A stretch of DNA of 64,000 bases from Mobula birostris (lineage: Eukaryota): contig NC_092387.1 of NCBI RefSeq assembly GCF_030028105.1, positions 8,399,305 to 8,463,304 of the forward strand. Reading direction: 5' to 3'. Positions 33,029 to 61,319 of this stretch are shown here, in pieces (the stretch's first letter is position 1; each line of letters begins with the position of its first letter). The notes beneath the pieces were generated by a model, which saw only the letters and a list, made by a program, of their open reading frames with translations, was not told the DNA's origin and made no database searches. The position numbers and the translations under genes were made by a program.

Positions 33029-33099
33029 TACATGTAACAATAATAAACTATAGCTAGTGGTGTGATCCCTCCCACCCCCAAATCCAGCTAATGAAGAGT

Positions 33100-35299: not shown

Positions 35300-35410
35300 G
35301 GCTGAGAAGAATAAACAGAAGGCTATAAAATTCCGCCGGATTCAGGCAGAGTTTGGGTGTCGTGGAGCTCTGCCGAGAACTCTAACAACAGAAGCCCTGC
35401 AGCAAATCAG
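35300..35410 (+). CDS. NGRN: Neugrin exon 2
   Basis: ttgcag|G...ATCAG|gtaaac, 111 nt; encodes KQKAIKFRRIQAEFG..GALPRTLTTEALQQIR, the neugrin motif (PRTLT.EA.EQIR). Confidence 0.92.
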
Positions 35411-37823
35411 GTAAACATGACTTGGCCAGTACCTCTCAGTCAGGTTCTTGGATCTGGTGCAAATGAAAAGAGATTAGATTTATTTGTCACATATCCATCG
35501 AAACATACAATGAAGCACATCGTTTGTGTCAACAACCAACACAAAGGATTTGCGCATGGTACGCGCAGTATGGTAGCGTAGCAGTGTAACGCAAAAGTAT
35601 GTACATGTTCAGCACAGCATTGTGGGCCAAAAGGCCTGTATTGTGCTGTAGGTTTTCTACGTGTCTATGCTATGGGCTTGGGTTCATTTCCTGCCACTGT
35701 CTGTGAGGAGGTTTGTACCTTCTCCCTGTGACTGGGTGCTCTGGTTTCCACCACATTCCAAAGATGTACGGGTTAGCAGGTCAGTTGGTCACATGGGTGT
35801 AACTGGGCAGCGCCAGCTCGCTGGGCTGGAAGGGCCTGTCACTGTGCTGTACCTCCAAATAAATAAGTGATGGGGGGGGCAGCCCACAAGTGTCGCCACT
35901 CCCGGCACCAACACAGCACGTCCACAACTTACTAGCCCCAACCTGCACGTATTTGGAATGTGGGAGGAAACCAGAGCACCTGGAGGTAACCCATGCAGTC
36001 ATGAGGAGAATGTACTAATCCCTTACGGACAGTGGCAGAAGTTATCGGGGTCGCTTGGGTGCTGTAATAGCGCTATGCTGACTGTGCCTTGGCCAGTGTC
36101 TCTCAGAAAAGTGCAAGTGATACTTTGAGACTTCTTGACTAAAGCGAGGAAACATCCTGCTTGTTATTTTAGTGCATTATGTCTGATAAATTTTGAGGGG
36201 TTTCTTTAGGTCTAAATGGGAAGGAGTAACTAGTGGGGAGAGGAAAAACAGTAAAGATTTGCATGGACAATGGCTGGGTTCAATTCTGACCTCAGGTGCT
36301 CTCTGTGTGGAGTTTGCAGGTTCTCCCTGTGACTCAGTGGGTTTTCCCCAGGTCCCATAACCAATCAACTTGTGAGTTGGTGGGTTAATTGGTTGCTGTC
36401 GATTGTCCCGTTATATGGATTAAAAGGCAAAAGGAAAGAGGGGAGAGTTGATGGGTGTGTGAGAGGAAATGTGTGACAGGGATACAGAGAGATGTTTGTT
36501 GTACAGAAGCCTGCAAGACTCCATGGCTCCAATCTTCCCCTTTTGTGTGGTAGTAAGTGGGAAGAATGGGCTGTCTGCAGTAATAGAATATTGTTGACAG
36601 ATACATCTGCCCATTAATCAATCCCTACCACTTAATCCCTTTATTTACATGAGACCATTCAATCCATCATGTTCATGCTAGCTCCCAGCACAGCTGTCCC
36701 TTGTCCAGTTTTCCCCTCCGTTTTCAAGTTTAGTTGTCATTCAGCCATGAATACAGCCAAAATGAAATGGATCTCCTCCGGAGCCAACGTGCAAAACATA
36801 GAATCAATAGTCACACACAGCACACAGCACGTATAATTATGATAGCAGGAAAACATAGTTACTAAAAAGAAATTAAAAAGTAATGATATAGATCAAGTCC
36901 ATGAGTGTCATAGCCTGTAAATTGCTGGTGCCTGGATTTTGCCCTGGAGCCATGTTTCTGCAAGAGCACCCCACAGCAGTCCCTCATATTGTGCAGTGCA
37001 GCTGCACACAAAGTCTTCTTGTCTCCCACTGAGCCAACACTGGAGGGTAGCACAGACGGAAGAGGCCAGCCTCCAATGCAGCGTGGAATCCAGCAACCCA
37101 CAGCTAGTTCCAGTGTCTCCGTCGTCGGCAGCCGGAGCCTACTGCCTCTCGTGCCTATCAGCTCCCCTCATTCTTCTTGCCACTTGGGGTTAATTTACAG
37201 CAAGAAATTAATCTACCTCTAACACGCCTTCAGGATGTGGAGGAAACCAGAGCACCTGTGGAAAATCCTTGTGATCACGGGGATAACCTGCAAACTCCAC
37301 ACAGAGTGCACAGAAGATCATGTTTGAACTGTGGCTGCTGGAGGTAGCAGCACTGCCTGCCGCATTACCACAGGGTCCCACATCCACCTTTTACTCACCA
37401 GGTAACAGAGGCAACAGGCGGCATGTTAGCGTAGCGTTTAGTGCAATCGCTTTATAGCGTCAGTGATCAGGGTTTGATTCCCACTGCTGTCTACAAGGAG
37501 TTTGTATGTTCTCCCCATGACTGTGAGGGTTTCTTCCAGATGCTGTGGTTTCCTCCCACATTTCAAAGGTGTACAGTTAGAATTATTAAGTTGTAAGCAT
37601 GTTATGTTGGTGCCACTTGTAGGCTGCCCCCGGCAAATCCTCAGGCCGTGTTAGTCGTTGACAGAAATAACACATTTTGATGTACGTGACAAATACAGCT
37701 AATATTTTATAATCTTTACTAGTGATTAAGTGACGTATGAGCTGATGAACTGATTGTTATGCATGCTGTCTGTGAGCAGTGTTAGTTTTCAGCGGGTGTA
37801 GATTACCTTCTGATGTATTTCAG

Positions 37824-38454
37824 GTTTTTGAAGGCGAGGTTCCCAGAGGAGTGGACTGTGTCTCAGCTGGCCGAGGGCTTCTCGGTCAGCGAGGATGTTA
37901 TCCGTAGAGTACTGAGGAGCAAGTTTATCCCTTCACCAGAAAGGAGGAGGAAACAGGACGCAAAAGTAGCAGCAGTGATGCTGTCCCTCTCTCACAGAAC
38001 AGAACAACCCACTGTCAGTTTACCAGGCCCATCGGACCCAGGCAGATCCAAACTAGTCACGGATCAGCCACCTGTGCCCAGACTCTCTCAGGGGGCAGTC
38101 ACACTTCCCGTACTCCCTGACACCAGAACCAGGGAGGAGGAGGTGGGAGAAAGCAAACCCATTCAGCAGAGATCTTGTACTGACCTCACTGATCAGGGCG
38201 TCATGAAGGTCAAAAGGCAGAGGAGGGAAGCTGCTCGCAAGGAGAGGGATGGGTTCAGGGAAACCAGTGACATGTCTGATGTGGAGCAGCTTCCAGCTGG
38301 TGGAAACCTGGATGAAGAATTGGAGAAATTCACTGCTGGAAGGTGGGGAAATCAAATGAACATTGTACAGAGGGGCCATGAATTTTATGACCAGGAAGGC
38401 AATTTCCTTTACAGAATTAATGAACACCTGACCAATCCCAAACAGGAATCCTGA
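37824..38454 (+). CDS. NGRN: Neugrin exon 3 (last coding exon)
   Basis: tttcag| acceptor; FPEEWTVSQLAEGFSVSEDVIRRVLRSKF and C-terminal VQRGHEFYDQEGNFLYRI. Spliced CDS 930 nt = 309 aa; AATAAA at 39137 and 39183. Confidence 0.95.
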
Positions 38455-42339: not shown

Positions 42340-43574
42340 CAAAGATGTACAGTCAGGATCAGAGTTGTGGGCACCCTATTTTGGCACAGGAAGCGTGGCA
42401 ACATTTGCGAGCTGCCTTCAGCACAATCCTCACTGACAAGATTTGAGGCAAACAGCGCACTTCACTGTATGTTTCAATGTACAGGTGATAAAGCTAACCT
42501 TTAACTCTGGCCTGCCATTCAGCAAGTCCATTCCTAATCTGGTCTTGGCCACAGCTCAGTTTCCCTGCCTGCTTCTGCAACTCTCCAAAAGAATAAACAC
42601 AAGAGATGCTGGGATCCAGAGTGGGGCACACAAAATGCTGCAGAAACTCAGCAGGTCAGGACTTGATGAAGGGTCTTGGCCCTCTCCACCGATGCTGCCT
42701 GACCTGCTGAATTCCTCCGGCATATTGTGTGTGTCACTGAAACAGAGAATGTGGGAGATCCTCAGCAGGTCAGACAACAGAAATGGAGAGAGTTAAAATT
42801 TTAGGTTGACTTTTCATCTGAACTGGAAAGTCAGAAATGTTTTAAGTTGTAGAGGATCAGAGAGAGCAATGGGAATTCACCTAGGAGGGTTCTTGAAATA
42901 TTAATATCGTTTCTCTCCAAAGACACTACTCTCAAAGATACTACTTCTCTCCAAAGATGGAGCATCTGCATTTTTTGAATTAACCACCCCGATTTCTCAG
43001 CTCTTTGGAGAATTGGAGTGATTCACGACCCTCACTGCAGAAATATCACCACATCCACGTTTTGATTAGGTGATACATTATCCAAAAATTTTCAAGTTTG
43101 TAGTCACGGGCGCTGGGTATACTGTAAATGTCAATTAAAAGTATCTTTTCGCTGCCGCAACACTAGGTAAATTACATAGACTTAATTAAGCATAATGTAC
43201 ATGTCAAATTGAACAATTTAAAATCATAACTTCACCTACGTTGCCAGCTACTCCCACGGGGGAACATCGGCCTGTTTCAGTAACATTATTTAGCACGGAA
43301 ACAGGCTAGCAGCCTAACCTGTCCAAACAGTCCATGTGAATAGACCTGGTCCTGTTTATGTTTGAACAGAACCACTCTTCTAGACGGGAGTATTTGGCTT
43401 TGCGGCTGCCCAATTTGCCGTCTCTTGTCCCACAAATGCTGAATTGGCCGGGGTGCCGGTTAAGGAACAGAAAGGAAATGTGCTGAGCGACGGTGCGGGA
43501 GTGACAGGCTGGCCGCTCTGCCTTGCGGTTCCCTGCACCGGACAGGATAGCGGATACCACCGGCTCTTTGCTCC

Positions 43575-44234
43575 CCATTGGCTTTTTCGGCGTCAAATTC
43601 CAGAAATCTGGCTTTTCCCCAGTTTGGTTGGCGTCAGAAAATTCATTTGGCTTTTTCCTATGCTAAAATTATCTGCACGAAAATTACATACCATCCTTTT
43701 TCTAAAATATTTTCCTTTAAGAAAAATGTTTTTGGTCAGGTACATTTGGCAATATTTCTGCCGCCAAGAGTCTGGGCAAGAAGGCGCCACACGGGACAGT
43801 CACGTCCGGGTCCAGTTTCTCTCGGACCTCCGAAGTGTTTGGATGTGATTTATAATCATACAAATCCACCGTGAAGTGTACTTTCTATACGTAATAACGT
43901 TTTGTGTTGAACGTTTCGGCTGTTTCAATAAATCATTTGTTATCAACACCCATGGCCAAGTCGTCAAAGAAATGGAAAGCTTCTTACGATAGCAATCGTT
44001 AAGTACAATAGCAAATGGGGAGAAACATTTGTATGAGTCCAAAAAGCTGCTGATGGATCGAAGGCAGCTTATTGTAAATTGTGCCACTGCACCATTGTAC
44101 CAAGAATTAGCAACCTTTCAAATCATGAAAAATCGGAGACACACAGGCGGAGAGCGCCATCAAAAGGCCAGTCATGTCAGACAGACTGCTAGGCAAGATG
44201 GATAAAGTTAAGGCAGCAGAGCTGCAAATCGCTG
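43575..44234 (+). mobile_element. 5' fragment of a hAT transposon (subterminal repeats and BED-finger start) directly upstream of HDDC3
   Basis: Repeated tggctttt subterminal motifs; ATG 43952 MAKSSKKWK...; BED finger YCKLCHC...NHE; 43789-44234 is an inverted copy of 60321-60758. Left boundary approximate. Confidence 0.8.
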
Positions 44235-44251
44235 GCGCTGGGCTGGGCGCC

Positions 44252-44363
44252 ATGGCCTCGGACGTACACCGAATCCTCGATACCGCCGATTTCGCGGCGA
44301 GAAAACACAGAAACCAGCGGCGGAAAGACCCGGAACGAACTCCATACATCAATCACCCTCTGG
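44252..44363 (+). CDS. HDDC3: HDDC3/MESH1 exon 1
   Basis: gccATGG Kozak context; MASDVHRILDTADFAARKHRNQRRKDPERTPYINHPL(G); G|gtaagg donor. Confidence 0.95.
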
Positions 44364-45240
44364 GTAAGGAAAGCGGGGCGGGCTCCGGCCCTTTGCAGAC
44401 TCACGGCTCTCGGCCAATCCAATCTCTAGTCGTCGTTCACCCACTGTGGCTACGCTTCATTTCCTCTTCCCCTTCCTCAAACACGGAGACGAGGCCCCCT
44501 GAGATGAAAATGCGTACATTACTATAGCGCCTGTTTGGAAATCCTGCGATGATTTCCTGGCTAGTCATTGAGTTATACAATACGGAAACAGGTCATTAGG
44601 CCCAATTCGTCCAAGTCAAAGCTATCTGCCATTGAGGCCCAAATCATTTAAAACTTTTTCTAAGCCGTATACTTGTTCAAATTTTCTTTTAAACGTAATT
44701 GCACCTGCTTCAACCACTTCCTCTGCAGCTCGTTTCAGATTCTCGCCACGCAACACCTAATAAAAACTAAAAATATAAACACTTAATAAAAGATGCACTT
44801 TGGGTACCGTTTAACTATTTCTCCTTTAAGCTCTGAAGTTATCCCCCAGCAAGGAAAAAAAGTCCCAGCCCTAAGGAAATTGCTGGAGAAAATTCTTAGG
44901 GATAGGATAGACGAGCATTTGGAAACCCACGGCTTAATTAGGGAGAGCCAGCATGACTTTTTGCATGGCAGGTCGTGCCTTACCAAAAGATTGAGTTTTT
45001 TGACAAGAGAGACGGCCTAGCCCTTGCTTCCCTAACTTTGGGGAAAAGTTCTGTCTGTCTGTATCTTGTTTTACGGCGGTTGGCATCCAGCTTAATGGTG
45101 CATTACCGCCACCCTCTGCTCCAGAATGTGCACTAGACACACATTCTAAATCCCTTCACCCAATCACACACACACACACACAAACCTACACTTCACCCTC
45201 CCATCTTTGACCATCCTAGTATCCTATTCCTGTTTATTCG

Positions 45241-48200
45241 TCATATTCTATAAAAAACCCCTGTACCCCTTAAAAACGCTAAAAATGCCTGGACTTGTGC
45301 TCTCTCACCCATGTCCAGCAACCCTTTTAATGTGAATTCCTGCATCCACAACTCCCTTAATTTATTTCTCATCATCTCTCTCTGTATCCCATACTTCCTG
45401 CAACACAAAACTACATGTTCTACTGACTCCTCTTCCTGACATTCCTCACACAATCCTGTCTGGTGTTTCCCTATCATTTTCAATGTTTTGTTTAATGCAC
45501 AATGCCCCAGCCTTAACCTAGTCTACACAATTTCCTCTCTCCTGTTTCCATTACCTACCCTAGTAACTGCAACACTGTTTTGTATTTGATATAAATGCCT
45601 CCCTTTCCCCTCCCTGTCCCATCTTTCTTGCCACATTCGGTTGACTTTTTCCCAGATTACACGCTTAACCTCTGCTTTACTGATACTAATGTGCATTTCC
45701 ACATTTTCTTTCTTTAATGCCCTCTTTGCCAACTCATCCACCCTCTCATTCCCCTTCACCCCTACATGTGCTGGAACCCATAGAAATTTTACCTGACCGC
45801 CCTGATTTGCAATTCTTGTAACTAACTGAAGGACTTCATAAAGTACATCTTGCCGACTGTTTGTGTGAAAAGACCTTAAACTTGCTAGAACTGAGGATGA
45901 ATCTGAACATATCAATGCTTTGACTTGTCTGGCTTTCTGCACCCATTGCAACGCAACCAATACCGCCAGCATCTCCACTGTAAACACTCCTAACTTATTA
46001 GATGTCCTTCTGCTGATTCCAATTTCTTTTGCTGGTATGACCACCCCAAACCCTGTCACTCCTGTTGCAGGTTCCTTCGCACCATCCGTATAAATGTGAG
46101 TATAATCACTATACTTTTCCATCACATGACAGTTAAATACATTTACCAAATCTGTTTTATATCTTTCTTCCCTTTTTACCTCTAACAAATGCCAGTCTAT
46201 GTCAGGCCATCCAAGCTTCCATGGAGCTACAACCGGATAAACTACTGAAGGACTTATCCGCAGATCAAATACTCCACATTCTTTCGCGATATCATTCCCC
46301 ACCCGACTAAAGGTATCCCTCTGAAACCTCCCATTTTCCCAGCACTCCTGCAACACTCCTTTAGTAGGGTGAGAATCATTGTGCCCCTGCAAGTTAGCCC
46401 AGTAGTTTGCCATCAGTTGCATCCTTCTTAGTTCCAAAGGCATTATTCCCATTTCTACCTGTAGGGCTGACACTGGTGACGTTTTAAAAGCCCCACTGCA
46501 CACTCTCAAGGCCTGAGCCTGAATCACATCCAGTTTCCTTATAAGAGACCTAGCTGCTGATCCATATACTATATTTCCATAATCCAATACAGATCTTACT
46601 AAAGCCACATACATTCTCTTCAAAGCTGAACAACTTGCTCCCCATTCCCTACCAGTCAAACATCTCATCACATTTATTACTTTTTTACATTTCTCCTCAA
46701 CTTTCCTGATATGGTCTGCCCATGTTAATCGTGAATCAAATATAACTCCCAGAAATTTAAATGATGCAACCCTTTCTAATTCAACCCCATACATCCTTAA
46801 CTTCTTCCCTACCTCAAACCTTTTCCTGGTAAAAAATACAGTTTGAGTTTAATCTACTGAAAATCTACATCCCCAATCATAACCCCACTCCACCACTTCA
46901 TCAATTGCTTCTTGTAGTTTCCTGATTATATGGTCCATGTTCCTGCCTCTTTTCCACAAGGCCCCATCATCCGCAAACAGTGACCTACCTATATCCACTG
47001 GTACCTTTGTGAAGACATCATTGATCATAATCATGAAAAGTAATGGGCTAATCACACTACCTTGAGGTGTGCCATTTTCCACTATGTACTGTTTTGATAA
47101 TTCTGATCCAATCCGAACTTGAATTTTTCTACCAAACAAAAAATCTTTAATCCAATTAAAAACTCTCCCACCAACACCCATCTTGTGCAGTTTAATTAAT
47201 AATCCTTCCTTCCACATCATATCAGAGGCTTTTTCAATGTCAAAGAACACTGCCACTACTGACTCTCTATTTGCCTGGATCTTCCTTACTTCAGTCTCTA
47301 ACATAATCACTGAGTCCATGGAATTCCTTCCCTTTCTAAAACCACTCTGATAACTTGCCAGCATTCCTCTTTTCTCAAGCTCATATGATAACCTTTCTGT
47401 TATCATCCTTTCCATTATCTTACATGATGTTAATGCAATTGGTCTGTAGCTAGTGGGTTTTGACAGATCCTTGCCAGGCTTCCTTATTGGAATTACTACT
47501 GCTTCTTTCCATGCACTTGGTAATCTTCCCTCCTCCCACACTCTGTTATAAAAATGCAGCAACTTCAAGAGCGCTCCTTCTCCTAGATTTTTTTAGCATC
47601 ACAGAGCATATCAGATCTTTCCCTGGGGAGGTTGGTCTCGATCTCTTTATTGCTCTCACCATTTCTGCTAATGTAAATGGATCATCAATTATATCATCTG
47701 TTCCTTCCCTCCTGCTTAACACACCTGGGTGTTGGCTCATTATTCTTTCCCTTCTTCAGACAAATTTTCTGAACTGTGTATCAGTACAAATGACTTGGCC
47801 ATGACCTCAGCCTTATCCCTACTGGAGACTGCAGTTTCCTCCTCAGATATCATTACTGGATATTCCCATTCCCTTCTATCTCCTCCCATCCTCTTAATCA
47901 TTCCCCATATCTCTCCCACAGGTGTTGTTCTTCCTACCTTGTCGCAAAAACTCCTCCAACTTGCCCTTTTAGCTTGACGTATAGTTCTTCTCACCACTGC
48001 CTGTGCTTTCTTATATTGAACCAAATGCTGCATATTATGGGTTCTTTTAACTAGCCTGAATGCTCTATTTCTGTTTTTTACAGCCTGACAACATTCCTCT
48101 GTCCACCATGGTACCAGTTTTCTATTCATCCTATTTTTACTCCTAGGTATAGATCCTTCTGCTGCCATGATAATTGCTGAAGTCACCTGACTGTTTAATT

Positions 48201-48999
48201 CATCTACATTTCCAGAAATATCAATCTTTGTCAACCCTTCTTCACTCAACTTCTGGAACTTACCCCAATCAGCTTTTTCAAACACCCACTTTGGGGTTCC
48301 GCCACCTGGTCTTACTTCAACTCTTTCACCCACTGAACACAAAACTGGGTAGTGATCACTGCCTACTGTTGAAGCAGTCCAAACTCCCCAGTTACTAATG
48401 CCAGCCAAGGTATTAGACACTAACGTAATATCTAACACTGACTCAGTTCCTGTTGTTATATCTATCCTTGTGCCGCTACCATCATTCACACACACCAAAT
48501 CCCTTTCTTCCATCAAATCTTCAATTACCTTTCCATTTGGATCTGTAATCTGATCCCCCCATATTGTGCTATGAGCATTGAAATCTGCACACCACACTAC
48601 TTTATGTCTGTTTTGTCCTTGTATCTTTAATAGGCTGTCCAAATCCAACCTTTTACATGGATTGTAGTAGTTAATTATAACCACTCCCTCCCCTCTCTCC
48701 CACACTTCCACCACTATGTATTCCTGATCATCTCCTTTTTCCAGTACCCTATATGGTATACCTTGCTTGATTAACATAGCACAACCCCCTCCTCCCCCTA
48801 GATTTCTATCTTTCCTTATCATTGTATACCCATATACCACAAAGTCTAAAGTTGGTTTCAACCAAGTTTCCTGAATACACACTACATCTGGTTTTACAAC
48901 CATTTCTTTAATAAAGTGCTTGAATTCCTGGCTATTGGCCAGTAAGCTCTTTGCATTCCATTGTAAAAGAATCACCATAATTAGTATTAACCAACACAT
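45241..48999 (-). pseudogene. LINE ORF2 (endonuclease, reverse transcriptase, RNase H), disrupted
   Basis: APE: LQWNAKSL, IQETWLK, DFNAH, SDHYPV. RT: YRPIAL, QSGFRKGR, GTPQGSVISP, FADDGAL. RNase H: IYTDG, EMLAV, SDS, WVPAHVGVKGNERVD. C-terminal CEEC...H...C. About three frameshifts and one stop. Confidence 0.92.
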
Positions 49000-50180
49000 G
49001 ACACTTCCTGGCTTGACTGATTACTGAGGTTCTCCCTCACTTCCTCCCATGTCAGTCCTACTAACCCTAAATGGTTTACTGCTGCTTTTACCACCAGCTG
49101 AATTTTGTCACTTTTTGACTTTACCTCAGCAGTACTATTAATCACTCCTGCAATGAATGTTACTAGAGCCTTTTTGTCTACATAAATCCTGTCATTTGTT
49201 CTTTGTTGCATCTCTCGTATCCCTATTGCTCCCTGTTCATTAGGAACATTATTCTGTTCTCTTGACATTCTTACAGCTTCTGCATAAGTGATCTTTCTTT
49301 TCACTCTTATTTCTTGAATTTTAGTCTCCTGTCTCACAACCTCACACCCACTATATGCAACATTATGAGCTCCTCCACAATTGCAGCATTTTGGTTGAAC
49401 TCCTGTTCCGCACTTTCCACATTCATGATCATCCCCACATCTAGCACATCTCCTCTGCCTTTTACAGTTTTTAGCCACGTGTCCAAACCTTTGACAATTA
49501 TAGCACCTCAGTGGCTTTGGCACATACACCCTTACTGGGTAACTCATGAAACCCAGGAACACCTTCCTTGGCACTCTTTCTTCTTCAAATTCAATCAATA
49601 CAGATTCACTTTCCTTTTTCACTCCCTCCTTTGTTGTTTTAAGTCTTTGAACATTCATTACTTTCCCTCCTTTGATATTCCTCTTTATCTCCTCCATATT
49701 TATACTCATTGGTATCCCCATGATCACTCCTTTACAACCACTGTTTTGTGCTCCCACCTTCCTAGTGTATTCCACCTTGCATTTTCCTATCTCTTTTAGC
49801 TTGAGTGCTTTCTCAAGTTGTTCCTCATTTGCACATCTTACCAATAAGTTGCCATCATTAAGGACTTTTGCAAATACTATTTCCCCTATCTTATTTGTCA
49901 GAGTTGTTGTTAGCACAAACGGGTTAATTTTCTTCATATGTCCCTGAGCCTTCTCATTAAACCTAATTATGACAACACCTCCTCTCTGAGCTTGTTCATC
50001 TTCCTCACTTTCAGAGCTTTCTCCACTATCATTTCTTATTCTTTTATTCCCTTTGTCTTGGTTTTTATTCATCCGACCCCTCACTACCTCCTCATTCCCT
50101 TTATTTTTCCCTTCACAATAATCCACCTCTCCCCAGCTGCCTACCTCTGGTCCCAAGTCTCTATCCCTCTCCTTCTCCAC
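48987..50180 (-). CDS. LINE ORF1, gag-like nucleic-acid-binding protein (397 aa, intact)
   Basis: Three zinc knuckles: CYNCQRFGHVAKNC, CARCGDDHECGKC, CCNCGGAHNVAYSGC. Confidence 0.9.
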   Translation of the reverse strand: MEKERDRDLGPEVGSWGEVDYCEGKNKGNEEVVRGRMNKNQDKGNKRIRNDSGESSESEEDEQAQRGGVVIIRFNEKAQGHMKKINPFVLTTTLTNKIGEIVFAKVLNDGNLLVRCANEEQLEKALKLKEIGKCKVEYTRKVGAQNSGCKGVIMGIPMSINMEEIKRNIKGGKVMNVQRLKTTKEGVKKESESVLIEFEEERVPRKVFLGFMSYPVRVYVPKPLRCYNCQRFGHVAKNCKRQRRCARCGDDHECGKCGTGVQPKCCNCGGAHNVAYSGCEVVRQETKIQEIRVKRKITYAEAVRMSREQNNVPNEQGAIGIREMQQRTNDRIYVDKKALVTFIAGVINSTAEVKSKSDKIQLVVKAAVNHLGLVGLTWEEVRENLSNQSSQEVSCVG

Positions 50181-52159
50181 TTTCTTTCCCTCAATCCCAC
50201 CTCTTGTCCGCCATTACCGGACCCACACGACCCCCTCCCAGCAATTTCCGTTCCTTCCCCACTCTCTTTCCCTCAACAGGTTCCAAAACACATCAAGCAA
50301 AACACAGCCGGCTTCCAGTCAAGCCAACTCCCAACCAACCTAAGTTCTGGGGAAAAGTTTGTGTGCATTCATCCTATTTATGTCTCTCATAATTGTATGC
50401 ACCTGAGATCATTCTCAGCCTCCCATGCTCTAAGCAATAAATTAATAGCCATCCCAACCTCTCCTTTGACCTAATCCCTCAAGACCTAGCAACATCCATG
50501 TAAGTATTTTCTGCATTCTTTCTGGCTTAATGGAATCTTTCCTATAGCAGGGTGACCAAAACTGAACACAAGCCTCACCAACATCTTGTACACTTGCACT
50601 ATAACATCCTAACTTCTCTACTCAGTGTCCTAACCAATGAAGAACAGTGCGCCAAAATCAGTTGGCGAGCAGATAGTGAAGTTTCTCTGGAAATACTCTT
50701 TTTTTTTCTTCTTAAAAATAATGTACTGGGAACTGAAAAGATTCAGTATAAAGAGTGTAGCCTTTCCACATTATTATTCTTTGAAGAGGAGCTTGAACCT
50801 GCCTCAAGAGGGTAGCATTAGTGAACTGCTTTAGAAGAGCCGTTGATGTCATAAGAATGCAGTAAAGTTGTGAAGATCCCAGCGAGTGAAAGCCAGGTGA
50901 TCTATTTTGGCCACAGGGGTGATAAGTTGAGGGGCTCTCAGCAGTAACTCCTGCTAGAGAGGGAACTTAATGTGTCTGGGTCAAGCACCTTCACAGCATT
51001 GGGCTAGAACTGTGATAGCTCTCCTGATTGAAAAAACAGTTATTGCTAGCTCTTTAGACTCGAACTGTGAGGGTGACAATTTGAGGGAAATTCCCAGAAA
51101 AATACACGTGATTGTGAAATGGTACACAAACTTTTTCTATCAGGAGGATAAGTTTTGATGAAGGATTTTTGGCCTAAAGTGTTAACTGTTTTTTCTTTGC
51201 CATAGATGCTGTGTGTTACTCTGGACTTCTGGCATCTGCAGAATATCTTGTGTTTAAGGGATTGAGAATTTTTGTAACTCCCTGCTTCAAAAGGCAATGG
51301 AAATAAAGTCTTTACATAATTTTAAGACTGAGGTAGATAAATACCTGGTGAGGAAAGATTACTGAAGGTAGGTGGAATTCAGTGCTGATGTTACAGTCAG
51401 ATCAGCCAAGATCTTATAAAATGGTGGAGCAGGCTTGAGGGACCAATTGTTTGTTTATGTTTTGGAAAACAGTAAGTTTGGAGCTGTAGCAGATGAGATG
51501 GAGACTTTCTGAAGTGATATGCAGTTAAATTTTCCCTACTGTATAGATTAGAGATAAAGGTTAGCTTTGTTTGTCACTTGTACAGAGAAACTTAAGAGTG
51601 AAATGTGTCATTTATGTCAATGACCAACAGAGTCTGAGGATGTGCTGGAGCAGCCTTTAAGTGTCACCATGTTTCCTGTGCCAACAGAGCGTGACCACAA
51701 TTTTTAACCCTTACCAATCCATATATGGGAGGAAACACACGCAATCACTAGAAGAATGAAAAAAATTCCTTACATTGAGCGGCAGAATCTTTCAGCTGGT
51801 GCTGTAAAGCGTAAACCCTACGTTAACCACTACACTTCTGTGCCTCCTATACATTTGTCATATACTGTACATACAGAATGTTTACTTCAAGCAGTGAGAT
51901 GTTAGCCCAGGCGGCGAGGTGTTAGCCCAGGCAATGCAGGTCTCTTAGACAGACATGGATTAATCTAGCTCATTTATCTCATTAAGTGAATCCCAGCTCA
52001 TTGAAAAACCTCTCCAATCAAAGGATTTCAAAGTACATTTATTATCAAAGAATGTATAAATTATACAACCTTGAGATTTGTTTGCTTACAGGCAGCCGCG
52101 AAACCCTCCATATTTGCAATTCTTTCTCCTTCACACATCCAGACTGATCATGTCAAAGA

Positions 52160-52780
52160 TTTGGCATGTTATCTAGAACACTGACAAAGTCCTATGGATG
52201 TGTGGTAGAGAGTATATTGACTGGCTGCATCACAGTCTGGTATGGAAGCACCAGTGACCTTGTATGGAAAAGCTTAGAAACAGTCGTGGATACAGCCCAG
52301 TCCATCATGGGTAAAGCCCTTTCCACCATTGAGCACATCTACATGGAACACTACATCTGTCTTCAAGGAACCCCACTATTCAAGCCATGCACTTTTTTGC
52401 TGCTGCCATCAGGAAGAAGATACAGGAGCCTCAGGACCCATACCACCAGGTTCAAGAACATATATTACCCCTCAACCATCAGGCTCTTGAACCAGAGGGT
52501 ATAATAACTTCACTCACCCCAACACTGAACTGTTCCCACAACCTATGTTCTCACTTTCAATGACTCTTCACCTCATTATCTCAATATTTATTGCTTATTT
52601 ATTATTATTTTTCTTCTTTTTGTATTTGCAGAAGGTTGTCTTTTACTCGTTGGTTGTTTGTTCTGGGAGTGGTGTTTCATTGATTCTTTGTGTTTCTTAT
52701 ATTTACTGTAAATACCCACAAGAGAATGAACGTCAGAGTTGTGTATGGTGAAATATATGTATTTTGAACTTTTGAATGTT
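52160..52780 (+). mobile_element. Rex1/L2-group LINE 3' fragment
   Basis: ORF 52166..52504 VESILTGCITVWYG...LLPSGRRYRSLRTHTTRFKN; a similar fragment lies at about 56850-57270. Confidence 0.75.
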
Positions 52781-52948
52781 CCTTGCTTCCATTGCTCTTT
52801 CTGAGTCCCAACCCACAATCTCTGTGTGAAGTACACTGCATAGGTTGAATAGAAAATGTCTTCTACAATGATACTTTTAACCTCTCTGATTGTAATTTGA
52901 ATGTTTGCCAGTGGGATTGCTGGGATTTATTTTTCTATCTGTCTGAAG

Positions 52949-53004
52949 GTGTTTCCCGAATCCTGTCACATGAAGCTGGAGTTACAGATGTGGTCGTCTT
53001 GCAG
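52949..53004 (+). CDS. HDDC3: HDDC3/MESH1 exon 2
   Basis: aag|GT...CAG|gtaaat, 56 nt; (G)VSRILSHEAGVTDVVVLQ. Confidence 0.92.
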
Positions 53005-53741
53005 GTAAATGTATTGCAAATCTTTTTTTACTCCCACTGAGCCCATCTTGGCTGCTTAAAGAATTTTGGAGGACTGTTGTCCAGCATTGACAAACAGCTC
53101 CCTTTATATATTACAGAGACATTTAAGCAGAGTAACAGGCCATTCACTCCAGAGGGCTCTGTTGTGCACTTGCAAGTTGTGCCCCACACAAACTTCCCCT
53201 CTGAGCCTAAAGATCCTTTAAGATTTGTGATTAACTTGGTAGAAACTACTTTATTTCATGGTGCTGAGTTGTTTGGTAACATTTTATTGTAAGACTCAAT
53301 CCTGGGAAATTAGAGTCAATCGCATCACAATTGCCTCGAACTTCAGTATCATGATACCGTAGCAGCTGGTGTAGCACTATTTCAGCACCAGCGACCCAAG
53401 ATCAGTTCAGCTGCTGCCTGTAAGGAGCTTGTATGTTCTGTCCATGACCATATGGGATTCCTCCAGGTGCTTTGGTTTCCTCCCACATCCCAAAATGTAT
53501 GGGTAAGTAGGGTCAGATGGGTGTAATTACGTGGCGCAGGCTCATTGGGCCAGAAGGGCCTGTAACTGTGCTGTATCTCTAAATAAAATAAAAATAATGC
53601 AAGACATCACAGGATAAACAAATGACAGTGTTTGAACCTGATATCAGAGCTGCATGTGTTACCAACCATGTACTAACCAGGTTGCTAGTCATTGACTGAC
53701 GATAATTCAGCTGCCAGGATCTTCTTGTGCTCTTCCTCAAG

Positions 53742-53982
53742 GCGGCACTTCTCCATGACACTGTTGAGGATACTGACACCACACTAGAGGAGATCGAGGA
53801 GAAGTTTGGAGAGAAGGTTCGGAGTATCGTTGCTGAGGTGACGGACGATAAATCACTTTCAAAGGCGGCACGGAAGAAGCTTCAGATCCAGCACGCACCT
53901 CACTGCAGCCGTGAAGCCAAACTGGTGAAACTGGCGGACAAACTGTACAATCTGCGGGATCTCAAACGTTGCACACCCAAAG
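53742..53982 (+). CDS. HDDC3: HDDC3/MESH1 exon 3 (HD motif)
   Basis: caag|GCG...AAAG|gtcagt; AALLHDTVEDTDTT...EVTDDK...AKLVKLADKLYNLRDL. Confidence 0.95.
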
Positions 53983-54042
53983 GTCAGTGCCACTCTAACA
54001 CGGTCTGGGTATAAGCCCGGATCGCTGTCTCTGAGCATGTCT

Positions 54043-54539
54043 TAATGAGGCCACTCTCAGGTTGGAGGATCAACACCTCATATTCCATCTGGGTAGCGCC
54101 CAACCTCACAGCATGAACATTGATTTCTGCCCCGTCCTCCTTTTTCCACTCCCCTCTTATCCCTTCTCTTTTCCTCAGCTGCCCATCAACTCTGGTTCGC
54201 TGTCTCCCATGCTCCACTCTCCTATCAGATTCCTTCTCCTTCAGTCCTTTACCTCTTTCACCTATCAGATTCCAGGTTCTCATTTCAACCCCTCCCCCAT
54301 GCACCTACCTTCCCCCTTGCTTGGTCTCCTGTTTCACCTTCCAGCTTGTACCCTATTCCCACCCTGCCCCACCTTCTTATTCTGTCTTCTTCCCCCTTCT
54401 TTTCCAGTCCTGATGAAGGGTCTTGGCCCGAAACATCGACTGTTTATTCCCCTCCATAGATGCTGCCTGACCTGCTGTGTTCCTCCAGCATTTTGTGTGT
54501 GTTGCTCTGGATTTCCAGCATCTGCAGAATCTCTTGTGT
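54043..54539 (+). mobile_element. Penelope-like element 3' fragment in HDDC3 intron 3
   Basis: GIY-YIG tail (RLEDQHLIFHLGSAQPHSMNIDF) followed by pLTR with a hammerhead motif. Confidence 0.8.
54405..54442 (+). ncRNA. Minimal type I hammerhead ribozyme motif
   Basis: CAGTC-CTGATGA-AGGGTCTTGGCCC-GAAA-CATC|GACTG; 5-bp stem I; the stem III palindrome is broken by a CpG-type G->A change. Confidence 0.6.
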
Positions 54540-54703
54540 ATAAGCAAAACAGGTTGGATTTGTCCACAAAAGTGTCCCTGCAGCAAAATGTCTAGCACAG
54601 AGCAGTGTGATAATATGGCAGGGGGTCATTCTGAAAGGAATGGATTGTACCAGAGGGTTAAGGAACCTCTATCTCACCTGACTTCTGTTGAATCATCATT
54701 CAG

Positions 54704-54837
54704 GGTGGACGGAGAAAAGAGTTGAAGAATATTTTGTCTGGGCTTCCAAAGTAATTGCTGGACTCCGAGGAACCAGTCAAGCCTTAGAAAACAGCTTGGA
54801 CGCACTGTTCAAAGAAAGAAACATTTTCACTCAGTAA
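54704..54837 (+). CDS. HDDC3: HDDC3/MESH1 exon 4 (last coding exon)
   Basis: ttcag|GG; (G)WTEKRVEEYFVWASKVIAGLRGTSQALENSLDALFKERNIFTQ-TAA. Spliced CDS 543 nt = 180 aa; AATAAA at 55013 and 55092. Confidence 0.93.
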
Positions 54838-55419
54838 TGGGCACTGCTGTCTTTTTCAATGAACATAAAATAAGGATTGTTTACTGTAAAATGAACAAAT
54901 TAAAATATCTATCTTGTCCTGAGGTAAAACTAAATATTTCTTTCTTCCTAATGTTCGTCCTTAAGGCTGAGTAAAGTGGTACTTGAGTTCTTCTCTGCTT
55001 ATATCTATTTGAAATAAATGTTGGTTATTTAGTTTGACTCACTGTGTTGTATCGTTTCACTGAAATGATTCTTCATAATTTGATTGTAAAGAATAAATAA
55101 GTGGCCCCTCTTCAAAGTTTATCTTTCATTTTTCACCATCAAAGATCTTAGGTAGGTGTTATTTGATTGGAGGGCTTTTCAGAAGCTATTTCTGTAAAGC
55201 TTTAAACCCTCTCCGAGTTTGATCTTTCACGCAGTCAATTTTCACACAAAAAAATCAGAACATTGAAGTTTCTTAACAGTTTTTTTTTTGCTTTATGTGG
55301 AATGCATTGTCTACTTAAAGAAACAATCCACCCACCCACGTACAGTTGGCTGTGCCTCCTGATGCTCCTGTCTGCCCATGGTGACAGGTTGGCGGAATGT
55401 AGTTCAACAAGGTTAGAGT

Positions 55420-55730
55420 GGTAGTTATCATCTATGTCAACTTTGGGCAAGCTGCCACGTGATAGGTTAGATCATGTGGGATAAAAATTAGCTTGGTGGT
55501 GGGAGTTAGAGTGGTGGTGAAGGACTGGAGATCTGTGAGCAGTAGCGTGTTGCAGGGACTGGTGATGGGCCCACTGTTGTTTGTCATCCACATTAATAAT
55601 TTGGTTGGAAATGTAGCTGACATGGTTAGTAAGTTTTGCAGATGATGCCAAAATTGGTGTTATAGTGAAGAAGGTTTGCTAAGATTCCAACAGGATCTAG
55701 ATCAATTATAAAAATGGGCTAAGGAACAGC
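55420..55730 (+). mobile_element. CR1 LINE RT fragment
   Basis: gcagggactggtgatgggcccactgttgtttgtcatcc...tttgcagatgatgccaaaattgg (QG..GP and FADD motifs). Confidence 0.65.
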
Positions 55731-58596
55731 AGATGTCCTTCTGTTCTGAGGCTGCCTCTCCTACTATTGGAAATAAATAGATTTACAGTGCAAATTAATA
55801 AAATCATTCTAGGCATTCCTAGAGTATGGTCGGCACAACATTGTGGGCCGAAGGGTCTGTAATGTGCTGTAGATTTCTATGTTCTATGTGCACTGGAATA
55901 TTAACTGTGTGTGCATGTCTATCGCTCTCTCTCTCTCCTCAGTTGCTGCCGTGTCCACTGAGCTTTTTGGCATTTTCAAATTTTATATGATTTCCAGCAT
56001 CTGCAGTTTTTCTGATAAATGTTGGTGACAGGGTGGAAAAAAAAAAGAAAAATTAAAGATCTGGATTCTCTGGCATCATTCCCACTCCTTTTCAGACATC
56101 CTGAAGTCTTTACATCCAATTAAGTACAGTAGTTCTAACATGTAATCACTGACGTGAAGAATTAAATGAAATGACAATGTTTTAGGGTGATTGAGGGATA
56201 AATACTGGCTGTTCACACAGATATCTCTGTGAGAGATTGACTGGAAGTGTTGACTGTGCTCCTCTCTCTACAGTTGCTGCCTGACCTGCTGAGAATTTCC
56301 AGTGTTTTTTTCAGTCAGATTTCCAGTATTTGCAACACACACAAAATGCTGGAGGAACTCAGCAGGTCAGGAAGCATCAATGGAGGGAAATGGTCAGTCG
56401 ATGTTTCGGGCCAAGACCTTTCTTCATGATTGGAGAAGAGGAAGAAAACTTTCCTTAGGGAAGGCAGAGCTTGAAGAGACTTTGCAGTGCAGCAACAAAA
56501 CTCCTGTCCAGTCCTGATGAGATGTTGACTGTCAATTTCCTGCCATAGACGCTGAGTTCAAGAGTGCATGTTAGCATAGTGGTTTGCATAACGTCTTGCT
56601 GCACCAGCAACCCAGGTTCAATTACCACCACTGTCTGTATGTTCTTCCTGTGACTGTGTGGGCTTACTCCAAGTGCTCAGGTTTCCACACAGTCCAAAGA
56701 CATATGGGTTAGGGTTAGTGAGATGTGGGCATGCTACGCTGGCGCCAGAAGAATGGCGACACTTGCAGGCTGCCCCCAGCACATCCTTGGCATCAGTTGG
56801 GCATTGATGCAATGACATGTTTCAATGTACATGTGACATATGCAGCTAATCTCCACACTCCAGCGGATTGTCGGCACCCAATTGCCCACCATTGAGAACA
56901 TCTATCATAAACGCTGCCTGGGCAGGGTGAAAAGCATTATCAAGGACGCATCTCACCGTAACCATGGACCTTTTTACTCTCCTCCCATTCGGTAGGCGCT
57001 ACAGGAGCCTCCGCTCCTGCACCAGCAGGCACAGGAAAAGCTTCTTCCCTGAGGCTGTGACCCTACTGAACCTCTCATCACAGTGCTAAGCAGTATTGCA
57101 CCCATATTGTACTGTCTCAGTACTTTTATATTTGTGTGCTGTAGCACTTTTTTTATTTGCAGTTATTTTGTAAGTAACATTATTCTTTGCATTTCTGGTC
57201 AGATGCTAAATGCATTTCATTGGCTTTGTATCTGTACTCGGCATAATGACAATAAAGTTGAATCTAATCTAACCTCTTTCTCCAGCATTGCGTGTGTGTT
57301 GTTCAGGAGTTTTGGATTTGCAGTTTTTTTGCTCAAAACCTGAATGTGCTGCATTCAGTGGTGGCGAGGTAATTTTGTTCTTCCTCCACAGAGGCTGTCT
57401 GACCTGCTGAATGTGAGGGACGGCATGAACGGCGGGAGAGCAGTCACTGAAGATGAGCCTGAGCCCCAGGTGTATGTGCGGTGGGAGCAGTCCATCCCAG
57501 CATGGTGGTTTACACTGGACCTAGGAGACAGGGTTGCCAGATTGAACTTTTAATTTAAAGCCAAACAATACTAGAAAAAACCAGAAAATAGCCAAACAAA
57601 TTTCAGTATATTTTTCATACTCACATCACATGAAAAGCAGGTCATTACTATCCTCTTCGCTGGAATGAGTGGAACATACGGCATAAACCTTGTCTGATGT
57701 GAAGTTTTTTAGCATTTCTGGAGATGCAGTGAAGTCTTTGCAACATTTGCTTTGAAAGCAATAGTTCTGCCCTGGTTCTCACAGTAGCATCAGAAGGTTC
57801 AGCTGCATTCTGTCTCTTACCTTCGTTTTAACGGAGGATACAAGAGGAAATATCCTCTCAACTACAGCATTGCTGACAGGGGTTATTAGGCAAGTAAGGG
57901 CAAAGGTAGAGACCTCTTTAAATGCCTGATGCTGAAGTACACCAGTCCAAAACACTTCAGTGTCTGTAGGGAGTCCATCTTTCTTAAATGCACCTTCTTC
58001 TTTCCAATCCACAAAAGGCATCTTTCTGTATTGTTCTTCAATAGTGCTGACGTTGTTTCCGGCAGGGTGTATAAAGGGTAACTCGGAAAACATGGGCCTT
58101 GAAACTTGATTTAAAATTATCACAGGGCTTGGTTTTAATAAACCTTCAAATGTATCTCTCACCGACGGAAGTCTACAGGTAACTTGACTGAGAGCTTCTT
58201 CTAGCATAGATATACATCTTTCTTTGACATTTTTTATTTCTAGATGGGCCTCAGCACTGTTGTTCTGCTGTAGGAACTTATCACTTGCTGTTAAGAATTT
58301 GATACCAAAATCAACTTCATGAATTTTTTTTCTGTCTTTTGGCATCATACAGTCTGTTCTGAAGACCCTTCTGGTGTAAGAATATTTGTTGCTACAATTC
58401 ATGAAGATCAGCTTTGGTTTGCTGAAAAAGGCCATTCAGTCTTTCAAATCCCTGCACAACAGGTGTTGCAAACTGAAAGAACAAGTAGTTTTTGTAGTCT
58501 GACAACATTTCCTTTAGGAGTCTTGCTTTGAATTTTGTATCAAACTTTGATTGGGCTAGTTCAGCAGAAATGAAATAAGCCTTTAGCTCTTCCCAG

Positions 58597-59226
58597 TGTT
58601 ACGAAATGTAACATTTCAGAAATAATCCAACAGCAAGAGATTTCACACTGTCGGGTTTTAATGTTAAAACCACTATCTTTATTAGTATCTACTTACAATA
58701 TCGTAACTTAACCAAGATAAACAAATGTTAACAGTGTTATTTGTGTAATATAGCTCCCAAACTAAGTTAAACTTGGGGAAACAAAGCTTAGAGTCTTGAG
58801 ATGGTAAAGTAGGAAAGTTCAGTTCATCCACGGAATGAATGATAGCAGAGAGATATTTGTAATCCAGGGTGAAACGTAGAGAAGAGGTAATTATGAAGTA
58901 TTCTACGGATTCCACGATGGTAAAACGAGATAACAGTCGCTGTAGATCTTGTCCGTCATCGTTCCAAATCCACATACAAGTTATCACCGAAAGTGATCTG
59001 TCACAGGGATATCGTCTTCAAGGGATTACCACACAACATACCCAGGCAAGAGTTAACACATAAGTAGTCTCTACAGGATATCCCAAACAAAATCCACTCC
59101 TTTGGATTATACGAAGTGACAGTCCCACATTCGTTGTGCACCATGTGCCGATATTTAACCCAATCTTTTGGGCTTGAAAGAGTTTGAAACCATCGCAGTG
59201 ACCAGTTGAAGTTTCAGCAGCTGATC

Positions 59227-59264
<38 letters not shown>

Positions 59265-59396
59265 ACTGACTGACTGTGTCCTTGTTTTAAAGTTAACAAG
59301 CTGCAAGTCAGTCAGTGAACAACATCATAGTCCCGCCTTATTTAGGCGCTCTTAAAGAGACAATCCACAGTAAACGAAACCTGTGGGTTCGTAACA
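58597..59396. mobile_element. Solo LTR inserted in the hAT transposase
   Basis: TGTTACGA...TCGTAACA perfect 8-bp inverted ends; 4-bp TSD ccag/ctag; removing it restores N-W-EELKAYF. Confidence 0.8.
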
Positions 59397-59539
59397 CTAG
59401 TTCATCAAAATATTAATCATAACCTATCCACACACAAGCCACCGAGTAAACGAAGGGTTTTCAAAGGGGAGGGGGGCAGTTTGGGTTAGCTCAAATTCTG
59501 TAGCTGTGTCCATCACTCCAAACAATTCTTTGTATGCTT

Positions 59540-59735
59540 GCAACACACACAAAAATTGCTGGTGAGTGCAGCAGGCCAGGCAGCATCTATAGGAAGAGGT
59601 ACAGTCGACGTTTTGGGCCGAGACCCTTTGTCAGTCTTGTACCTCTTCCTATAGATGCTGCCTGGCCTGCTGCGTTCACCAGCAATTTTCGTGTGTGTTG
59701 CTTGAAATTCCAGCATCTGCAGATCTCCTCGTGTC
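59540..59735. mobile_element. Palindromic Penelope-derived mini-element in the hAT transposase
   Basis: Inverted pLTR arms; flanking repeat tgtatgctt / tatatgctt. Confidence 0.75.
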
Positions 59736-60795
59736 TATATGCTTCTTGTCTTAATTCACTATGGCAAAACCAATTGGGTATTCTGATAGCAAAAATCCAA
59801 TACCCTGTATTTGATGGTAGCTTGAATACTGCATATTGAATGCACAGTGCCAAAGAATGACAGAGCCATTTGAGTTGCAAACAGAAAGGAGACACATCTT
59901 TTAGTCTGGGCCACACAGAGTTGTTGCACCCAACCATGTTTGATGCACGAGCCGATGCAAAACCAATGTAATTTGCAAGACTCTGGCCACATCGTTTGAT
60001 CTCATCAATCAAATTGAATATGTTATCTAAACCTAGAAATCCAGTTACAATTTCCTTTGTCCTATCGCTTAAAAATCGAACTAAAATACACAAGTGTTTT
60101 TGTGTTGAAATGTCAGTAGATTCATCTATAATGATGACATATTTCTTGTTCTGAAAGTCATCAATGAGATCAGTTTTCAGTGCAGGAGAAATGATGTTTT
60201 TGATTAAGCATGCACATTTAGTTTTATGTAACTTAATGTGCTCCAGTATACTCCAATGCCTATGCGCTATCATGATGTCACTCAGAACTGTATGTATCGC
60301 ACAATAGCAGGTCATGCTTACAGCGATTTGCAGCTCTGCTGCCTTAACTTTATCCATCTTGCCTAGCAGTCTGTCTTACATGACTGGCCTTTTGATGGCG
60401 CTCTCCGCCTGTGTGTCTCCGATTTTTCATGATTTGAAAGGTTGCTAATTCTTGGTACAATGGTGCAGTGGCACAATTTACAATAAGCTGCCTCCGATCC
60501 ATCAGCAGCTTTTTGGACTCATACAAATGTTTGTCCCCATTTGCTATTGTACTTAACGATTGCTATCGTAAGAAGCTTTCCATTTCTTTGACGACTTGGC
60601 CATGGGTGTTGATAACAAATGATTTATTGAAACAGCCGAAGGCGTCACAGTTTCACCACAAGAAAGTACACTTCCCGGTCGATTTGTATGATTATAAATC
60701 ACATCCAAACACTCCGGAGGTCCGAGACAAACCGCACCCGGCCGTGACCGTCCCGTGTCGCCAACTCGCCGGTTGGCGCCGGGTGAAACCTGTTG

Positions 60796-60860
60796 CTAGG
60801 AGACAGGCGGCCGGAAGCGACTGTCGTTACCCGGAAGCGGTTTTGCGGAAGGATGGCGGC
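60796..60860 (+). promoter_or_regulatory. VPS33B core promoter: tandem ETS/GABPA sites and YY1-like motif
   Basis: CCGGAAG at 60811 and 60831, GCGGAAG at 60845, GATGGCGGC over the ATG; CpG-rich. Confidence 0.6.
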
Positions 60861-60942
60861 CCGCCGCGATGCCCCTGACCTGCCGGACTTAGACATCTTG
60901 AAACGTCTCGCCCGGGACCAGTTGATCTACTTGTTGGAGCAG
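60853..60942 (+). CDS. VPS33B: VPS33B exon 1
   Basis: [30 protein letters not shown]; CAG|gtgggt donor. Confidence 0.93.
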
Positions 60943-61080
60943 GTGGGTGGGGGGAGAGCGCAGCCGTCTCAGGGGCCTCGTCCGACACCGGCTGAGCCCT
61001 GATTAAGTGTATCGGGGGGAGTATGGACGGGTAAAGGTGGGGAAGTGACAGGTACCGATCGGTCTGCGGTTAACAGGAGA

Positions 61081-61319
61081 GACGGATAATGGAGGTGGGT
61101 GGGGGGGGAGGTTGACGGATAATGGAGGTGGGTGGGGGGGGAGGTTGACGGATAATGGAGGTGGGTGGGGGGGGAGGTTGACGGATAATGGAGGTGGGTG
61201 GGGGGGAGGTTGACGGATAATGGAGGTGGGTGGGGGGGGAGGTTGACGGATAATGGAGGTGGGTGGGGGGGGAGGTTGACGGATAATGGAGGTGGGTGGG
61301 GGGGGAGGTTGACGGATAA
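61081..61319 (+). repeat. G-rich minisatellite, 32-33-bp unit x ~7.3
   Basis: Unit gacggataatggaggtgggtg(7-8)aggtt, starting at 61081, 61114, 61147, 61180, 61212, 61245, 61278 and 61311. Confidence 0.95.

Follow-up and report, generated by a model that had tools for sequence, protein, structure and literature searches.

How did two neighboring genes come to begin beside the same piece of a dead transposon, present in opposite orientations? This question is raised by 64,000 nucleotides (nt) of the Mobula birostris genome (contig NC_092387.1, positions 8,399,305 to 8,463,304 of the forward strand), referred to as a whole as the window, in which HDDC3/MESH1 and a gene that we take to be VPS33B, from its N-terminal sequence, are each preceded by a copy of the 5′ region of a hAT element. 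Genes arranged head-to-head are generally considered to stay paired because of the promoter they share; here, such an arrangement seems to have been disrupted, with both genes intact and the transposon 5′ region as the likely replacement promoter. As far as the sequence can tell, a lineage-specific inversion has probably separated two genes that once lay head-to-head, so that HDDC3 now has a 5′ end derived from the transposon.

The top off-diagonal match in a self-comparison of the window was 43786-44234 on the + strand against 60761-60321 on the − strand (450 nt, 93.8% identity, 677 bits). This bore out the original prediction of inverted copies at the two gene starts, copy A ending 17 nt before the HDDC3 ATG (44252) and copy B lying 94 nt from the VPS33B ATG (60853); the flanks of both copies were unique within the window. 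In a global alignment of 43789-44234 with 60321-60758, 27 of the 447 columns differed: three of 320 positions in the inner segment (43915-44234), where about four had been counted by hand, eight of 97 in the outer segment (43789-43885), and, in the middle block (43886-43914), six mismatches among 20 aligned columns together with 10 gap columns. The copies had a +1 frameshift (44001/60554) and an in-frame TGA (44034/60521) in common, as previously noticed, and two more shared frameshifts were found in the linker, their exact place varying with the gap penalties. All four lesions were absent from a family relative (P0164, 80% identity over the matched stretch), whose frame is open through the whole BED region. 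Therefore, the shared frameshift and TGA are not the family consensus, in agreement with the earlier claim, and that explanation was dropped; a dead but mobile subfamily carrying these lesions may exist. Moreover, the two copies are complementary, since A is associated with a left subterminal block and B, as predicted, continues into the rest of the transposase and a right terminal inverted repeat (TIR) at 57529, so that one event explains both truncations.

Beyond the duplicate, copy B runs on into a full-length dead transposase with further stops and frameshifts, in which 176 of 284 and 186 of 315 residues are identical to those of an Argiope bruennichi protein (P0001, annotated as ZNF862-like; 60% identity over a 205-aa query). 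By its predicted BED finger, DDE core and hAT C-terminal dimerisation region, the transposase qualifies the element as a hAT: the Pfam scores obtained in the window were just under the cut-offs (20.6 vs 21.4 and 17.4 vs 20.6), and the full-length P0001, which aligns along copy B, passes the cut-off (37.1 bits). A domesticated ZBED-type gene was also considered and dropped, the transposase open reading frame (ORF) being broken throughout.

The gene order around the repeats points to an inversion. NGRN (33066-38449, Neugrin E=8.7e-33), located upstream of HDDC3, HDDC3 itself and VPS33B all lie on the + strand, the last two adjacent and in tandem. In zebrafish, vps33b (−, chr7:51833084-51852383) and hddc3 (+, chr7:51852843-51854956) are head-to-head, 460 bp apart, and both appear in a promoter table obtained by cap analysis of gene expression (excerpt of PMC6954239, supplementary file 5); the vps33b strand is also given in the excerpted supplement of PMC5570503. 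The repeats sit at the starts of HDDC3 and VPS33B, and a flip of 44235-60320 (16,086 nt) gives back the zebrafish layout. We therefore consider it likely that HDDC3 was inverted at this repeat pair, whatever the route.

The ends of the element provide a further hint. The right end is CAGGGTTGCCAGATT, which resembles the right end of a related hAT in contig L001; no intact left partner was found in the window within three mismatches, and a decayed left-TIR candidate is located at 43384. Subterminal repeats TTGGCT[TA]T are present at 43577-43655 and at the right end, and L001 has a matching end design, with TTTGGC repeats running in one direction at both ends, which supports the putative identity of 43577-43760 as a left subterminal block. 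The earlier claim of left subterminal repeats beside copy A was thus upheld as to motif direction, but not by direct alignment of this block to L001, which was not significant (29 of 300 shuffles reached its score). The 8-mer outside the right TIR (T2) has a 7/8 match at 43376 (T1), the only one of 44 matches of at least 7/8 that is followed by TGGCT[TA]T after 4-26 nt, and the T1 site ranked 3 of 3331 when target-site duplication (TSD), TIR and motif were taken together. Since T1 pairs with T2 in the orientation predicted by an inversion, the left end of the element probably lies at about 43384 and not at 43575, where it had been placed.

The lineage and order of events that we infer would be as follows. 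In the ancestor, HDDC3 would have been head-to-head with VPS33B on one promoter, as in zebrafish, and a hAT would have inserted past the 3′ end of HDDC3, generating T1 and T2 as its TSD pair. A break-and-rejoin event, by staggered break or template switch, with one breakpoint in the hAT and the other 17 nt upstream of the HDDC3 ATG, would then have reversed the segment, which now measures 16 kb, and left a second copy of ~450 nt from the hAT 5′ region. In this way, VPS33B would have retained its native core promoter, and HDDC3 would have been placed behind the transposase 5′ region, to be most likely transcribed from hAT DNA and translatable from the in-frame ATG at 44198. The flipped, rebuilt element would measure 2,647 nt without later inserts. 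A break within one continuous hAT needs the fewest events, and this specific route is given slightly less than an even chance; the weights of the competing routes are a matter of judgement and not of computation.

HDDC3 proved intact, as had been claimed, with four exons, GT-AG introns and no internal stop, and hAT DNA adjoining its start probably forms its 5′ end. The CGCTG repeated across the junction may represent microhomology of the end-joining type. The transposase frame is open into the HDDC3 ATG from both 44174 and 44198: copy A reads ATG TCA at 44178 and copy B reads ATG TAA at 60377, and the TCA of A opens a 26-codon extension from 44174 in this genome, whereas the gene model of Mobula hypostoma (P0012) starts only at the 44198 codon. 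Read from 44198, the protein was identical to P0012 at 197 of 198 residues, including the transposase-derived peptide at its start, a peptide found in one of 126 HDDC3 matches. This peptide was absent from the representatives of ten further named cartilaginous fishes, Hypanus and Narcine among them; HDDC3 is 180 aa long in nine, and that of Scyliorhinus carries a 5-residue extension of unrelated sequence, the Stegostoma entry being classed by its length and by its absence among the peptide-bearing matches. P0012 is a predicted gene model standing for a cluster of five members, and extension-free models elsewhere do not show that the hAT is absent there. Since P0012 carries the peptide and the representatives of the other fishes do not, the junction between hAT and HDDC3 is present in a second genome and looks lineage-restricted.

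Where transcription of HDDC3 starts is suggested by several features of the upstream sequence. Nine out-of-frame or closed ATGs occur between 43660 and 44125, which favors a transcription start site (TSS) in the late part of the inner repeat or splicing from further upstream, and an AG precedes 44198. Should T1 be correct, the 851 nt preceding the 17-nt stub would be hAT throughout, so that the CpG-rich zone upstream of HDDC3 would be mostly transposon. What we presume to be ETS, RFX, E2F and YY1 patterns were seen on the VPS33B side only. It seems reasonably likely that the HDDC3 TSS lies in hAT DNA, and more tentatively, at somewhat less than even chances, that a hAT promoter drives HDDC3 and the extended protein is made, with no continued flipping involved. 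A further proposal, which appears improbable, is that devil-ray HDDC3/MESH1 has lost its half of the promoter, is transcribed from a dead transposase promoter with 12 transposase residues at its N-terminus, and belongs to an inverted pair that still recombines, constituting a natural switch between the hAT and VPS33B promoters.

Table 1. Coordinates of the features of the HDDC3-VPS33B locus within the window.
Feature	Position	Strand	Evidence
T1: TCTTCTAG, matching at 7/8 positions the 8-mer that lies outside the right TIR; candidate for the left TSD of a once continuous hAT	43376..43383	+	
U: GC- and CpG-rich stretch, probably the hAT left end, its TIR badly decayed; or else what remains of a native promoter	43384..43576	+	
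hAT left subterminal block, TTGGCTTT repeats	43577..43760	+	motif direction the same at both ends, as in L001
Copy A: outer part (to 43914), transposase 5′ untranslated region (UTR)/promoter region; inner part (ATG 43952), dead piece of BED coding sequence	43789..44234	+	self-match, alignment; zf-BED E=0.0044, under curated cut-off
In-frame 18-codon HDDC3 extension: 12 transposase codons and 6 through the 17-nt stub; strong Kozak at 44198	44198..44251	+	
17-nt native 5′ UTR stub; CGCTG repeated across junction	44235..44251	+	
Intact HDDC3/MESH1, exons 44252-44363, 52949-53004, 53742-53982, 54704-54837	44252..54837	+	HD_4 E=2e-12
x: GC-rich stretch next to the right end, depleted in CpG; may derive by decay from part of the old promoter	57411..57520	.	
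T2: 8-mer outside the right TIR, CTAGGAGA on +	57521..57528	-	
Dead hAT remainder: transposase body, right subterminal repeats, right TIR (57529-57543)	57529..60320	-	Dimer_Tnp_hAT E=3.8e-4, 20.6 bits vs cut-off 21.4
Copy B of the duplicated 5′ piece; family state kept in the block rearranged in A	60321..60758	-	self-match, alignment, P0164
37 nt that may be either native promoter or hAT with homology to 43750-43788	60759..60795	-	
T3: exact T2 copy, direct orientation; 12-nt match counting the following CAGG	60796..60803	-	
VPS33B core promoter (two CCGGAAG ETS sites, YY1-like site at ATG) and exon 1	60804..60943	+	motif patterns; gene name presumed

Several observations weigh against a clean inversion by a single staggered break. 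The divergence between the copies is uneven, being about ninefold higher in the outer than in the inner segment (Fisher p=6e-4), and the max-chi permutation test gave 4/3000, with or without the rearranged middle block. An inverted duplication is found at both ends of the segment, as expected of a staggered break, but the even divergence along the duplicate that would also be expected is lacking and could be rescued only by later conversion or mutagenic repair; for this reason, the locus is not firmly filed as a staggered-break inversion. For the same reason, the shared lesions may stem from later gene conversion and do not date the event, so that they neither prove the duplication of one long-dead copy, as had been argued, nor imply that the element was already dead when duplicated. 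Other points concern the setting. The outgroup is zebrafish alone, the search having yielded no orientation of these genes in a cartilaginous fish; in this teleost the far neighbor is mfap1 and not ngrn (zebrafish ngrn being on another chromosome). A plain flip leaves 111 nt between the two ATGs, compared with 460 bp between the annotated zebrafish gene ends. When the motif is set aside, the T1 site falls to rank 66 of 3331 for TSD and TIR, and the TIR after T1 is far more decayed than the right TIR. Furthermore, the original prediction had overlooked that copy B has an exact 8-mer on both sides: T3 is a direct copy of T2, 37 nt past the duplicate, and brackets copy B as in an ordinary insertion, and the 37 nt align weakly to copy A and end exactly at T3. 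The flank at 43000-43375 has a raised CpG content (observed/expected 0.66, reached by 1.6% of 2288 windows), and x has a GC content of 0.59, reached by 1.6% of 2332 background windows, a feature noticed after the fact. Thus, of the proposed rebuilding of one hAT with HDDC3 head-to-head, the zebrafish layout and T1 with its motif speak for the inversion, and the divergence of 8/97 against 3/320 and T3 speak against the single staggered break.

The history of the divergence can be followed further. Beyond the duplicate, comparison of copy B with a crude consensus of 17 proteins gave differences at 28 of 191 residues, or at 19 of 160 if restricted to well-supported columns; this is roughly 5% at the DNA level by an inferred conversion and is taken as an estimate of the age of the element. 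The outer 8% would be about that expected for two copies as old as the element, and the inner 0.9% about ten times younger. Either the inner near-identity would be secondary, the 320 nt having been homogenised later as one inverted copy converted the other, or error-prone repair would have introduced changes in the outer part of A. P0164 starts VTPSAV, like copy B, and copy A reads LNVSAV in the rearranged block, which indicates that the rearrangement is derived in A, where this block holds a duplicated AACGTTT. It was observed that at all eight outer substitutions (43798-43872 vs 60675-60749) copy B has G on the sense strand of the element (one-way orientation p ~0.008), and the polarised inner change in copy A is likewise a loss of G. 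The G bias and the duplicated AACGTTT would fit a scenario in which A underwent error-prone repair when the rearrangement took place. Around the G-biased outer differences, no single context and no common flanking motif of AID/APOBEC deaminases was found, and among family proteins extending further 5′, sought to polarise the eight outer differences, only P0164 was of use, over three codons.

The two candidate TSD partners of T2, one at 7/8 in inverted orientation (T1) and one at 8/8 in direct orientation (T3), are both non-random at a similar level, and therefore each model treats one of them as chance or adds events. A chance origin of T3 was estimated at ~1 in 1000, from 22 of 20000 and 1 of 5000 shuffles of the 94-nt gap and from the 55 of 63898 window 8-mers that occur there. 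No homology beyond T1/T3 was detected (141-750 of 1000 shuffles reached the score), nor was a repeat split across the T1 and T2 flanks, such as would establish the empty site. The anchored alignment score of the 37 nt was reached by 44-125 of 2000 shuffles and by 21-36 of 766 promoter-like controls under five scoring schemes. What we presume to be an RFX-type site at 60792-60804 (CCTAGCAACAG on −) overlaps T3, and a weaker look-alike is found at 44185-44197, in the inner repeat beside the 44198 ATG.

T3 and x are better accounted for by an inversion through two full hAT copies than by a break in a single hAT, and this we hold to be possible, if rather unlikely. The primary insertion would have been in the shared promoter, with T2/T3 as its TSD and x as the displaced HDDC3-side promoter half, or the inverted copies would have arisen by a local hop or hybrid-element insertion; HDDC3 would have been flipped between full copies, the 3′ part of A and the left end of B deleted, and the inner 320 nt homogenised by conversion. 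The exact direct repeat T2/T3 and the weak homology of the 37 nt, stopping at T3, suit this route, as do x, which resembles a decayed CpG island (4 CpG vs 8.9 expected, with TG/CA excess), and an outer divergence of 8% close to twice the element age of ~5% inferred as a DNA distance. In the excerpts used, hybrid insertion and ectopic recombination are both described as leaving inverted copies at inversion ends (PMC2775673), and Ac as favoring hypomethylated genic DNA (PMC8225341). The price is two extra complementary deletions, one of them flush with T3. With exchanged TSDs, T1 pairs with T2, a second pair is missing and the identity of T3 with T2 is again chance; if T1 was instead copied from T3, the duplication must end at the outer edge of the TSD, with no homology beyond it. 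The intact RFX-type site across T3 is also simpler if native.

T3 bears on the inversion itself as well. If the tandem order of HDDC3 were already that of cartilaginous fishes, copy B would be an ordinary insertion with T2/T3 as its TSD, and copy A a local hop or pasted copy in the HDDC3 promoter, with subsequent conversion. Besides the direct repeat, the common + orientation of NGRN, HDDC3 and VPS33B agrees with this scenario, as does the CpG richness of U and its flank, like that of a native island. U has a GC content of 0.60 and 13 CpG in 193 nt, a number found in none of 2320 background windows; its hAT origin would follow from T1, and no significant homology to the subterminal block, x or the VPS33B promoter was found (27-302 of 400 shuffles). 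However, zebrafish is head-to-head and the repeats lie exactly where a flip restores that layout, T1 with its motif would have to have arisen by chance, at about 1 in 1000 by our estimate, and two complementary truncations would be required, which makes the absence of an inversion quite unlikely. The near-identity of the inner repeat raises still another explanation: the segment may have been misassembled in the present orientation, or may flip polymorphically or have flipped recently through the inner 320 nt, which are 99% identical, with HDDC3 and VPS33B head-to-head across a 450-nt hAT fragment in the true or alternative arrangement. The M. hypostoma model would be compatible with it, as it shows only inner-repeat sequence beside HDDC3, the same in both orientations. 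Nonetheless, the unique flanks of both copies in the window speak against an assembly error, and a repeat of 450 nt should not mislead an assembly if it was built from long reads; little weight is given to this explanation. Among these accounts, an inversion with its break inside one continuous hAT is given the most weight.

Other features accompany the main ones. An exon that we take to be TTLL-like lies upstream of HDDC3 at ~5140-5400 (+); library searches with its short pieces gave no match, and likewise the short exons of VPS33B had no match in PDB, Pfam and Atlas. A 33-nt G-rich minisatellite is located at 61081-61319, in VPS33B intron 1. HDDC3 intron 1 contains a young-looking long interspersed nuclear element (LINE) at ~45051-50348 (−), with an ORF1 zinc knuckle and endonuclease, reverse transcriptase and RNase H pieces in three frames; a direct repeat at both of its ends, TGGGGAAAAGTT, may be its target duplication, and the inverted segment would measure ~10.8 kb if this LINE arrived later. 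On the copy B side, an 800-nt CpG-rich insert at 58598-59397, with TGTTACG...CGTAACA ends and a four-base direct repeat matching at 3/4 positions, looks like a solo long terminal repeat, and a palindromic short repeat abundant in the window is inserted in the transposase at ~59540-59735. The relative in L001 (1232-4658) is a hAT with a nested palindromic insert (1243-1988); L001 is a eukaryote-like contig filed under a bacterial metagenome-assembled genome, probably as host contamination, and two of 25 pattern matches encoded relatives.

The locus offers a small, testable case of the splitting of a shared promoter, with ~850 nt of hAT DNA and a native core promoter nearby as control, and a candidate transposase-derived N-terminal extension on the conserved enzyme HDDC3; ongoing flipping, if true, would be a natural promoter switch at a vertebrate housekeeping gene. 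A literature search, with most subscription journals outside its scope and partly among the matches listed, found no paper on this locus, and the TIR sequence word had no match in the papers searched.

Comparison with known systems, drawn from excerpts of the papers cited, places the locus among inversions associated with duplicated or transposable sequences. Staggered-break inversions leave inverted duplicates of 46 bp-1.9 kb (Ranz et al. 2007, PMC1885836); the ray duplicate of 446 nt, at both ends of the segment, is within this range, and duplication at one breakpoint is allowed, whereas the duplicates described there are non-repetitive and that of the ray is a transposon with uneven divergence and a third TSD-like 8-mer. 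In Galileo-flanked inversions with hybrid insertion (PMC2775673) and in Ac/fAc alternative transposition (PMC8225341), inverted cut-and-paste copies are likewise found at both breakpoints, and T1/T2 of the ray resemble an exchanged TSD pair; unlike in these cases, neither ray copy is complete, a second TSD pair is not visible and the identity of T3 with T2 is not predicted by exchanged TSDs. The maize Ac/fAc cases also alter gene expression (PMC8225341). As to the element, the ray copies resemble the ZNF862-like P0001 and the relative P0164 in sequence and the hAT of L001 in end anatomy, but are dead and fragmented, with no sign of a domesticated ZBED-type ORF. Recruitment of transposon DNA, with hAT often named, into the regulation or coding of a host gene would be shared with sablefish gsdf (PMC8327909) and Xenopus dm-W (PMC9250109), which differ in being sex-determining genes. 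The closest parallel may be found in Drosophila mojavensis, where Hsp68a at inversion 2r has a Galileo fragment 3 bp from its start codon and CG10375 at inversion 2s has a BuT5 footprint (PMC3355041). In both of those cases, as is proposed for the ray, a breakpoint removes the upstream region and a DNA-transposon fragment by the ATG is the suspected new promoter. What sets the ray case apart is that it concerns a vertebrate, that the enzyme gene is single-copy and intact and comes from a probable head-to-head pair now split, and that both genes adjoin the same hAT piece, with a transposase peptide in frame. The locus would therefore represent a vertebrate instance of a kind of event already known from Drosophila and maize, in which an inversion breakpoint carries a transposon fragment as a candidate promoter.

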